NCBI GenBank assembly: GCA_963771465.1 | Contig: CAVYTU010000013.1 | Coordinates: 224,001-288,000 of the forward strand | Origin: an uncultured delta proteobacterium | GTDB taxonomy: Bacteria > Desulfobacterota > Binatia > UBA9968 | Direction of reading: 5' to 3' | DNA length: 64,000 bases | Shown: piece by piece, positions 60,272 to 61,923 of the stretch | Layout: each line of letters starts with the position of its first letter | Position numbering within the stretch: position 1 is the stretch's first letter | Position numbers and translations under genes: made by a program | The notes under the pieces: model-generated | What the model was told of the DNA's origin: nothing | Seen by the model: the letters and a program-made list of their open reading frames with translations, nothing else | Database searches by the model: none

Positions 60272-60988
60272 TCATATAGGCGCTGCTGCGCTTAGCGTGT
60301 CGGCGCTATCGATGACGTAGCGCGACGCATTGACATAAAGTTTGTTAAACAGCTCCGGGAACGGCACTCGAAAACTCACCGGATCCTCGGCAATCTCTTG
60401 CAGCTTCTGCCGTGTCACAGTCACGTCGAGAACCGGCCGCGGCTCGACGATCGTCATGGCGACCATGCTGAGATTCTCGTGATCGGCTCGCCGCAAGAAA
60501 AATTCCGTCGGACCAACGTGAAAAAGCTCGCGCAGGTAATCGCGCAGGAGCACGAGTTTCAGACATTCGAGTCCACGATCATCGATACCTTCGCGCCGCG
60601 CCAGCAGCTTTTCCGCCAGTTGCCGGCGGCCAAAGCAGATGCGCCGCTCGACGGTTAACGCTTGCTGGCGAATGGCGGCGGGCGGCCGTTGGATAAACTC
60701 TAGCTCGAAAATTCCGTTGGCTTCATCTTCCAGTACGACGAAGCGGCGGCGCTCCGAGGGATCGTACTGAACGATCCAAACGCCGCCCGGCAGGTCGGTA
60801 AACAGCAGCGGCGTGTCGCGCCGGTAACGCGCGCCGCACTTAAGACAGGACAACTCGCCCCAACTGCCGTCGATGATGCGATCCGCAGCCGCCTTGATGC
60901 GCGCGCCGTTGACGCTGACGAAAACTTTCTCGACTTGCGCCGCGCCGCAAACCGGACAGATGACCTCTTGGATCTCGCAACGGCTCAT
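60272..60988 (-). CDS. CpXC domain protein
   Basis: CPVCG...VFVSVN...IIDGS....CLKCG......PLLF.D. Confidence 0.8.
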   Translation of the reverse strand: MSRCEIQEVICPVCGAAQVEKVFVSVNGARIKAAADRIIDGSWGELSCLKCGARYRRDTPLLFTDLPGGVWIVQYDPSERRRFVVLEDEANGIFELEFIQRPPAAIRQQALTVERRICFGRRQLAEKLLARREGIDDRGLECLKLVLLRDYLRELFHVGPTEFFLRRADHENLSMVAMTIVEPRPVLDVTVTRQKLQEIAEDPVSFRVPFPELFNKLYVNASRYVIDSADTLSAAAPI

Positions 60989-61923
60989 AAAAAATCCGCG
61001 TAGCCTTTCAGGATCAAATGATCGGCGGCGCCGATGCGCACGCCGAGATAGGAAAGCGTTTCGCGACCGGCTGCATCACAGAGCCAGCGCAGGCGTTCCT
61101 GCGTTTGCGCCGCTGCGGCGCCGTCGAGCAGTCCAGCCGCCACCATCGGCGCAACATCCGGGTAATCGATCTTGAGCGAACCGTCGCTGCCGTCCTCGCA
61201 AAGGGCGAGAGAAACAAATACGGTCTCGGCGCGATAGCGCGGCGCCAATCGGTCGTGATAAGCCAGCCATCTCGGCAGCGCGGTCGGCGCCGCAGCAAAG
61301 CGTTCGACCGCGCGCCGCAAGCGAGCTTCGACGGCTTGAAACGAGTCTTGCGTCAGATATTGCGAAAAATAAAACTTGTACCAGAGCGGCCGATCCGGCC
61401 GCGCCGTAAACGCGACAAAGTGGACCGTGTCTTTGCCCAGTAACGCGCCGAGCTCGCGAAATTCGCCAAGCGGCAAACAGCGGCCGGCGAAGCCGGCGAG
61501 GATTTTCAGCGCATCATGAACGTAAGGGCGGCGCCGATAATAGACCGCAATCTGGCGCTCGATCCGGTCACCGAGAACGCACCATTCGAGCTTCAAGAAA
61601 GCGCGCTTATGGTCGAACGCTTCGGCCAATGTGAGCTGAAACCGCTTGGCCTCCTCGGTCATGTGCCACGACTTCATCAACTCGCTCACGCGCTGGGTGA
61701 AGTTCTGGCCTTCGCCGCGGACGAGTAGTCCAACCACGGGCGAATCGGTTGCGGCGATCAGCTCGCCGTAGGAATCAAATTCCGGAAAAATGCAGCGAGC
61801 GACGTCGTCAATCTCCGATACAGCGGCCGGTGCCAAAGCCGTCACTACATCGGTGAGAATGCCCAGACGACCGAAGTCCGTTAAACGGTTGAATGAACCG
61901 TCGTGTCGAAGAACTGCTTCCAA
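60985..61923 (-). CDS. hypothetical protein, ABBA/aromatic prenyltransferase-barrel-like
   Basis: 312 aa; five helix-pair/beta-hairpin units, four ending AVYY, KFYF, KIDY, KGY; AGGAG RBS before the TTG start. Confidence 0.7.
   Translation of the reverse strand: MEAVLRHDGSFNRLTDFGRLGILTDVVTALAPAAVSEIDDVARCIFPEFDSYGELIAATDSPVVGLLVRGEGQNFTQRVSELMKSWHMTEEAKRFQLTLAEAFDHKRAFLKLEWCVLGDRIERQIAVYYRRRPYVHDALKILAGFAGRCLPLGEFRELGALLGKDTVHFVAFTARPDRPLWYKFYFSQYLTQDSFQAVEARLRRAVERFAAAPTALPRWLAYHDRLAPRYRAETVFVSLALCEDGSDGSLKIDYPDVAPMVAAGLLDGAAAAQTQERLRWLCDAAGRETLSYLGVRIGAADHLILKGYADFL

Follow-up and report, generated by a model that had tools for sequence, protein, structure and literature searches.

What does an enzyme-like barrel do beside the toxin of an extracellular contractile injection system (eCIS)? 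The locus that raises this question lies in a 64,000-nucleotide stretch, here called the window, from an uncultured delta proteobacterium of the Binatia lineage UBA9968 (assembly GCA_963771465.1, contig CAVYTU010000013.1, positions 224,001 to 288,000). A 312-aa protein encoded on the minus strand at 60985..61923 stands mid-way in a complete minus-strand eCIS locus, between the gene for a 697-aa cargo, or effector, and the gene for a CpXC zinc-ribbon protein; its annotation as a prenyltransferase-barrel (ABBA-fold) protein draws on its open reading frame (ORF), an AlphaFold2 model, fold searches and homologues. We conclude that this barrel belongs to a small, sequence-divergent family that is new by sequence and has the known ABBA fold in a new setting, and that the barrel and CpXC are an accessory pair tied to one eCIS cargo family, which combines DUF4157, annexin repeats and an HExxH/EFFAE C-terminus. 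Regarding function, the explanation we favor is an ABBA-fold eCIS cargo accessory that is probably catalytic and by which the cargo or its partner would be prenylated; taken as a whole, this falls somewhat short of an even chance.

The AlphaFold2 model of the barrel, built on a 35-sequence alignment (predicted local distance difference test, pLDDT, 92.9; predicted template modeling score, pTM, 0.90), consists of five alpha-alpha-beta-beta repeats, with ten antiparallel strands (residues 53-58/63-70, 108-117/120-129, 169-174/181-190, 233-242/250-255 and 292-297/304-310) and the helices outside. Foldseek returned 115 PDB matches to this model at E<=0.001, and the best 50 listed are all ABBA prenyltransferases; 5-DMATS, PriB, IptA, DMATS1, PagF, CymD, FgaPT2, EpzP, CloQ, NphB, LimF and KgpF are among the enzymes listed. 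With VIA-align, 50/50 entries listed are likewise prenyltransferases, with Z 20-23 over 262-295 residues, including CymD (Z 23.1, root-mean-square deviation (rmsd) 2.9 A, 279 residues aligned), 5-DMATS (Z 22.1), MpnD (Z 21.8), NphB (Z 20.9), FgaPT2 (Z 20.4) and CloQ (Z 20.2). A preliminary description of this DNA, made from its letters alone, had proposed an ABBA barrel from five hairpin-like segments. Those segments correspond to the ten strands of the model, and the proposed fold is recovered both in the ten-stranded barrel itself and in the two structural searches, where every row listed is a prenyltransferase. The K-x-Y strand ends cited in the same description held in part: K183-F-Y185 and K306-G-Y308 agree with it, whereas two other strands read K111-L-E113 and K251-I-D253. 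On the basis of the predicted model, the barrel gene product almost certainly adopts the ABBA fold.

The gene itself is well delimited. The 3'-terminal part of the effector gene contains an AAGGAG Shine-Dalgarno-like site (61931..61936, minus strand), 7 nt 5' of the TTG. Apart from the TTG at 61923-61921, no in-frame ATG, GTG or TTG is present upstream of residue 27, and the N-terminus MEAVLR is found at the same start position in many homologues. The opening helix of the barrel (residues 16-30) also requires this start. The effector stop codon at 61881-61883 leaves 43 nt shared with the 5' end of the barrel gene, and the barrel stop and the CpXC ATG share 4 nt (ATGA), an arrangement that suggests translational coupling. 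The 312-aa frame with its TTG start and both overlaps had been reported in the preliminary description and can be read in the sequence as reported, with the minus strand now added. Numerous long spurious ORFs are found on both strands of this region, which lends some initial plausibility to the barrel frame being a chance opening in GC-rich DNA that overlaps genuine genes. This is refuted by the confident fold model and by homologues that conserve the motifs down to 31% identity; the barrel also has a ribosome-binding site, overlaps its neighbors by 43 and 4 nt only, and the probability left to a chance frame is vanishingly small.

The barrel family is real but small. A word-indexed search of a 5.8-billion-protein set found 78 homologues at E<=1e-3, with 99% to 31% identity; these are either unnamed or named 'hypothetical', and none carries a precomputed Pfam domain. 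An exhaustive phmmer search of 1.84 billion representative proteins gave 101 matches at E<=0.001. Three long phmmer matches (P0148, P0168 and P0170) were rejected as spurious, being Tudor or cupredoxin repeat proteins. Relatives of the barrel were sought in viral contigs and none was found, nor were fused forms of the barrel found, which is weak evidence. The barrel protein has no match in Pfam (E<=0.01), NCBIfam, PADLOC or PHROGs, and 0 of 57 family members matched Pfam at E<=1, the families PTase_Orf2 (PF11468) and Trp_DMAT (PF11991) included. A search for PF11468 and PF11991 across the source genome found neither, and the control genomes gave no match either. A profile of 35 barrel sequences had 0 matches to PDB sequences at E<=10; the profile of 57 sequences had four at E<10, with CymD (0.12), IptA (0.48) and PriB (0.98) at the top. 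These three sub-significant matches are the same enzymes that were placed first by the fold search, and in their alignments the K-x-[YD] strand motifs of the barrel family fall on the K-x-[WY] motifs of the enzymes. The feature neighbors of the barrel in a protein atlas include clusters with PTase_Orf2, Trp_DMAT and DUF5838, which is treated as a lead only.

Does the barrel keep an active site? The presumed lumen face was assigned by strand parity in the predicted model, and invariant residues per strand were taken from the 35-sequence alignment. The polar, lumen-side face comprises Y52 and E54 on beta 1; G65, R69 and E71 on beta 2; R107, F109, K111 and E113 on beta 3; Y128 and R130 on beta 4; F169 on beta 5; K183, Y185 and S187 on beta 6; T234, F236 and S238 on beta 7; K251 and D253 on beta 8; G294 and R296 on beta 9; and K306, Y308 and D310 on beta 10. 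The other strand face is hydrophobic (L55, L110, L112, W114, V170, F186, V237, L239, I252, L293, V295, L305 and A309) and would lie against the helices outside the barrel. All 35 sequences have the same 17 polar residues facing the lumen (Y52, E54, R69, E71, R107, K111, E113, Y128, R130, K183, Y185, S238, K251, D253, R296, K306 and Y308). The wider alignment holds 57 members, with a mean column identity of 29%, and the identity of members to the window protein goes as low as 16%; there, E54 is kept in 56, S238 and Y308 in 55 each, K111 in 54, K251 in 51 (plus two Arg), D253 in 51 (plus five Glu), Y185 and Y128 in 50 each, R130 in 48, K183 in 46, K306 in 41 (plus nine Arg) and R69 in 37 (plus ten Lys). 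In the weak profile alignment to CymD (E 0.12), K183 and K251 each align with a Lys of its strand motifs. In ABBA enzymes generally, as described in the available part of one source, the diphosphate is held by about four basic residues and tyrosines, with a 'tyrosine shield' (PMC7973389); for EpzP, the consulted portion of another gives R49, K117, R232 and K283 with Y174 and Y220 (PMC3485228). The periodic Lys/Arg-x-Tyr pattern of the modeled barrel resembles such a diphosphate site, with residue equivalence presumed. Alternatively, the numerous acidic residues of the lumen could engage in salt bridges or bind Mg2+. As modeled, the conserved charged and aromatic lumen favors a ligand-binding or catalytic protein, and from the kept ring of Lys/Arg, Tyr and acidic residues we infer allylic diphosphate binding and prenyl transfer; the barrel seems somewhat more apt to have retained this activity than to have lost it.

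Comparison with other loci demonstrates with what the barrel travels. Twenty-seven pattern matches in a genome scan resolved into 11 loci, which comprise five in Nitrospira, one in Nitrospiraceae and one each in Variovorax gracilis, a Burkholderiales metagenome-assembled genome (MAG), a Sulfurifustaceae MAG, an alphaproteobacterial MAG and an unclassified MAG. A DUF4157-type effector homologue is upstream of the barrel in 11/11 and overlaps the barrel start in 10/11, an ORF standing in between in locus L012; CpXC is immediately 3' of the barrel in 10/11, and CIS structural or ATPase genes are present in 10/11. A metagenome scan targeted at a distant clade (31-40% identity) gave 135 pattern matches, or 23 loci. 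Seven of these contigs stop within the barrel gene and hence are not assessable for CpXC, which follows the barrel in 14 of the 16 assessable metagenome loci (L015 and L016 are the exceptions) and, over genomes and metagenomes together, is directly 3' of it in 24 of 27. The effector C-domain is found upstream in 10 of the 23 metagenome loci, and 11 of the remaining 13 have <1 kb upstream. The position of the cassette varies: in L010 and L011 it comes after the gp48/DUF6519 end of the locus, in L026 it precedes the ATPase, and in L019 it is away from the CIS locus, with genes for MsrB, UvrA, FHA and ThiF proteins as neighbors. Despite this shifting position, effector, barrel and CpXC stay together. 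The preliminary description had named a lack of association between barrel homologues and effectors or CIS as one ground for rejecting its reading; the homologues instead show close linkage to eCIS_core (DUF4157) effectors and CIS genes. The barrel is very probably a dedicated accessory of the cargo with DUF4157, annexin and HExxH/EFFAE elements. Among 61 genomes of the source organism's order, the barrel is found in the source genome only, as is the effector C-domain, and the patchy distribution of the cassette is that expected of a mobile cassette. Several eCIS_core genes were also observed together near the cassette in L010, where 20 kb holds six matches, and in L004 (3417-7108), where four copies lie upstream; these look like effector arrays.

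Barrel copies standing alone exist. L015 has 2.8 kb upstream and L035 has 1.6 kb; as judged from translations, the genes there are unrelated, encoding in one locus MFS-like and GST-like proteins and a sigma factor, in the other a WGR/LRR-like protein, and neither has an effector. These copies fit a protein with autonomous activity, and they also speak for an active prenyltransferase with another acceptor: a delivered co-effector that would alkylate a target-cell molecule, or a maker of a prenylated small molecule or peptide. Two facts from the literature point the same way, namely that eCIS toxins, which DUF4157 marks, are often no more than two genes from a DUF4157 gene (Geller 2021; Danov 2024, PMC11297309; both as far as the accessible text goes), and that the known ABBA enzymes covered in the sections available to us all use small aromatics or short peptides (PMC3485228, PMC7973389, PMC13290415). 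A Trp-halogenase-like flavoenzyme beside the cassette in L012 could also be read in this sense. However, the barrel has no conserved disordered N-terminal leader, its first helix running from residue 16 and many homologues beginning some 30 residues further on; no further biosynthetic gene is conserved, the halogenase being in one locus; and CpXC plus effector are the sole conserved context of the barrel. We consider another acceptor improbable, on what the model and the loci suggest. The halogenase-like gene (L012 4914-6803, plus strand; flavin adenine dinucleotide (FAD) enzyme, Pfam E 1.6e-15) has an eCIS ATPase on one side and the effector on the other, and was rejected as a conserved partner of the barrel, having been found in L012 only.

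In the distant clade, tblastn also revealed an ORF of 230-260 aa with a lipoprotein signal directly 3' of the effector gene at nine loci, including L012 9213-9899, L014 ~459-1337, L019 7193-7894, L026 7197-7922 and L018 4558-5190. In L018, this ORF follows effector copy 1 and the barrel-CpXC pair follows copy 2. The intervening lipoprotein gene means that the 43-nt effector overlap is not family-wide. The lipoprotein ORF is a candidate periplasmic immunity protein, and as such a better immunity candidate than the barrel; if it has this role, it would imply an antibacterial effector that acts in the periplasm. No lipoprotein counterpart is present in the cassette of the window.

The lipoprotein bears directly on a second alternative, in which the barrel is a non-catalytic ABBA derivative that holds part of the cargo, either as a chaperone or loading adaptor or as an inhibitor that keeps the metallopeptidase in check inside the cell up to loading (immunity), with CpXC as its partner. 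The strict link to one effector family and the coding position directly 3' of it are those of adaptors and immunity proteins, chaperone-like roles around DUF4157 are discussed in the consulted part of Danov 2024 (PMC11297309), the barrel matches no enzyme family by sequence, and the cassette of the window's clade contains no alternative immunity candidate. The separate lipoprotein at nine loci of the distant clade, beside the effector, nonetheless weakens the immunity reading. The 17 invariant polar residues of the lumen, most of them kept at 16-30% identity, form the pattern of a ligand or active site and not of a protein-protein surface, and the stand-alone copies in L015 and L035 have no effector to hold. 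A non-catalytic barrel is unlikely, though it retains real weight.

We return to the catalytic cargo accessory. In this proposal the barrel would bind an allylic diphosphate in its lumen and would transfer the prenyl group to the neighboring cargo, or to a peptide or partner bound with the cargo. The transfer would occur in the producer cell prior to cargo loading, and the prenyl group would supply the annexin-bearing toxin with a lipid handle. That the cargo, or something bound with it, serves as acceptor is doubtful when judged separately from the activity, and still less is to be expected of the boldest form, in which the ABBA enzyme and its CpXC partner lipidate the full-length injected toxin in the producer, such that the cargo arrives with a prenyl anchor.

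Several observations weigh against this proposal. The barrel lacks a sequence match to any known ABBA family (Pfam 0/57, NCBIfam none), and the PDB profile matches of its family are not significant by themselves. The lumen was assigned from strand parity, in a model that is itself a prediction. This lumen is unusually acidic too (E54, E71, E113, D253 and D310), and the acidic residues could form salt bridges that fill the barrel, or could bind another ligand. A lipoprotein gene stands between effector and barrel in the distant clade. No case in which an ABBA enzyme natively prenylates a full-length protein is described in the available part of a 2026 review (PMC13290415).

The barrel can be compared and contrasted with several known systems. 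The best structural matches are the bacterial indole prenyltransferases of the DMATS/CymD family (CymD 6os5, 5-DMATS 6zs0, IptA 7w8u, PriB 5inj and MpnD 4yl7), with Z 21-23 and an rmsd of ~3 A over 276-295 residues. These are likewise soluble five-repeat barrels, with K-x-aromatic strand motifs that align to those of the window family; they differ in sharing 9-16% identity with the window protein, which has no Trp_DMAT match, in length (~350-400 aa versus 312 aa) and in setting, being found in natural-product clusters whereas the window barrel is in an injection-system toxin cassette. Members of the NphB/CloQ/EpzP family (PTase_Orf2, PF11468) are closer in length (~300 aa) and have Z 20-21, although the window barrel has no PF11468 match. 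Their diphosphate site, according to the portion of the source consulted, consists of four basic residues and tyrosines at one-repeat spacing (PMC3485228); the comparable periodic set in the window barrel would be R69, Y128/R130, K183/Y185, K251 and K306/Y308, if the presumed equivalence is correct. The cyanobactin F-family (PagF 5tu6, KgpF 8ye0 and LimF 7vmy) shares the ABBA barrel, with Foldseek E ~1e-6 to 1e-5. In the available parts of two sources, its members act on peptide Tyr, Trp or His, which makes them the closest precedent for an acceptor that is a polypeptide (PMC7973389, PMC13290415). In contrast to these enzymes, the window barrel has no NCBIfam or Pfam match and no cyanobactin protease or precursor, and its neighbors are eCIS genes. 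F-family substrates are short, mostly cyclic peptides, whereas the cargo in the window has 697 aa. Type VI secretion system adaptors and chaperones and DUF4157 as a proposed eCIS chaperone resemble the barrel in being encoded adjacent to cargo and inherited with it. Chaperone-like functions near DUF4157 are raised in Danov 2024 (PMC11297309, in the part consulted). Unlike the window barrel, the contractile-injection effector accessories described in the source text available have neither an ABBA fold nor an enzyme-like lumen.

The partner gene, at 60272..60988 on the minus strand, encodes a 238-aa CpXC zinc-ribbon protein (Pfam CpXC E 2.7e-14) with four invariant Cys (C11, C14, C48 and C51). 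Its AlphaFold2 model (pLDDT 90.6) had no Foldseek match in the PDB at E<=0.001, and the best VIA-align Z over 48,161 chains was 2.6. A predicted complex of CpXC and barrel scored 0.02, where the mark is 0.32, a result that counts neither way. CpXC homologues in two related genomes are in unrelated contexts, one beside pirin and one beside an ABC permease; thus CpXC as such is not an eCIS marker.

The cargo gene at 61881..63974 (minus strand) encodes 697 aa from a GTG start and matches Pfam eCIS_core at E 7.5e-29. Its eCIS_core (DUF4157) domain (63495..63722, minus strand; aa 85-160) contains HELAH at aa 150-154. Two annexin-like repeats follow (63000..63374, minus strand; PDB annexins, E 8e-5), marked by GWGTDEEAIY once at aa 219 and again at aa 282. 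The core of the C-terminal metallopeptidase-like domain (61992..62468, minus strand) is bounded by HEVGH (aa 503-507) and EFFAE (aa 657-661), two motifs whose pairing is gluzincin-like. Among 15 aligned effector homologues, RHE[VI]xH, EFFA and a C-terminal Trp and His are conserved. The C-domain has a weak PDB sequence match to a lethal factor fragment (E 1.2), which is a lead only. In protein family and PDB searches, the annexin-plus-peptidase combination matched no named toxin family. Directly upstream of the effector lies a gene for a second eCIS_core protein, of 722 aa (L013 2918-5086, minus strand), whose 3' end shares 58 nt with the effector GTG start and whose C-terminal 500 aa have no Pfam match.

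Structural genes of the eCIS lie 3' of CpXC at 49495..60231 on the minus strand and encode, by Pfam, CIS_tube, VgrG-like Phage_base_V, DUF4280/PAAR-like, gp25, two Baseplate_J and Mu gp48-like proteins; a DUF6519 gene is also downstream in the same run. Beyond the end of the window are genes for a sigma-54 activator, sheath, gp19 tube, T4-baseplate-like protein, Pvc16_N cap, winged-helix AAA+ ATPase and the 722-aa eCIS_core protein. At 57530-59214 (minus strand), the 379-aa Phage_base_V ORF, with its spike domain at aa 204-281, shares ~580 nt in a different frame with the 375-aa ORF before it. The in-frame match in L003 and L009 is confined to the C-terminal half of the Phage_base_V ORF, so the spike gene probably starts near aa 170-200 of the ORF. 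A GT4 glycosyltransferase gene (45223-46728) and a calcineurin-like phosphoesterase gene (44141-45154), both on the minus strand, were observed after the DUF6519/orf527 end of the eCIS locus.

The preliminary description had remarked that such an enzyme is not a described eCIS component, with which our literature searches and the main texts of two eCIS surveys agree. Among 8.1 million PubMed Central (PMC) papers and 0.36 million preprints, with relevance judged by title and abstract, we found no paper that links prenyltransferases to contractile injection systems, DUF4157 or type VI secretion, none on lipidation of eCIS cargo and, among the matches listed, none on the CpXC Pfam family. Neither 'prenyl' nor 'CpXC' occurs in the main text of Geller 2021 or of Danov 2024, and the supplements of both may hold the cluster unnamed. 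Since the barrel family has no Pfam model, Pfam-based surveys of eCIS accessories, such as the domain enrichment described in the available part of Geller 2021, presumably could not detect it.

ABBA prenyltransferases are known as tailoring enzymes of natural products and short peptides, and here the fold is a conserved companion of an injected protein toxin. If the barrel is non-catalytic, it would be a rare reuse of an enzyme barrel as an effector-handling protein. If it is active on the cargo, bacteria would have a new way of lipidating proteins; the cargo of an eCIS, about whose loading and handling little is understood, would pass through a maturation step; and a new biocatalyst for the prenylation of peptides or proteins would be gained. 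If it is the full-length toxin that is lipidated, the barrel would be without precedent both as an ABBA enzyme that modifies proteins and as an enzyme that matures the cargo of a contractile injection system.

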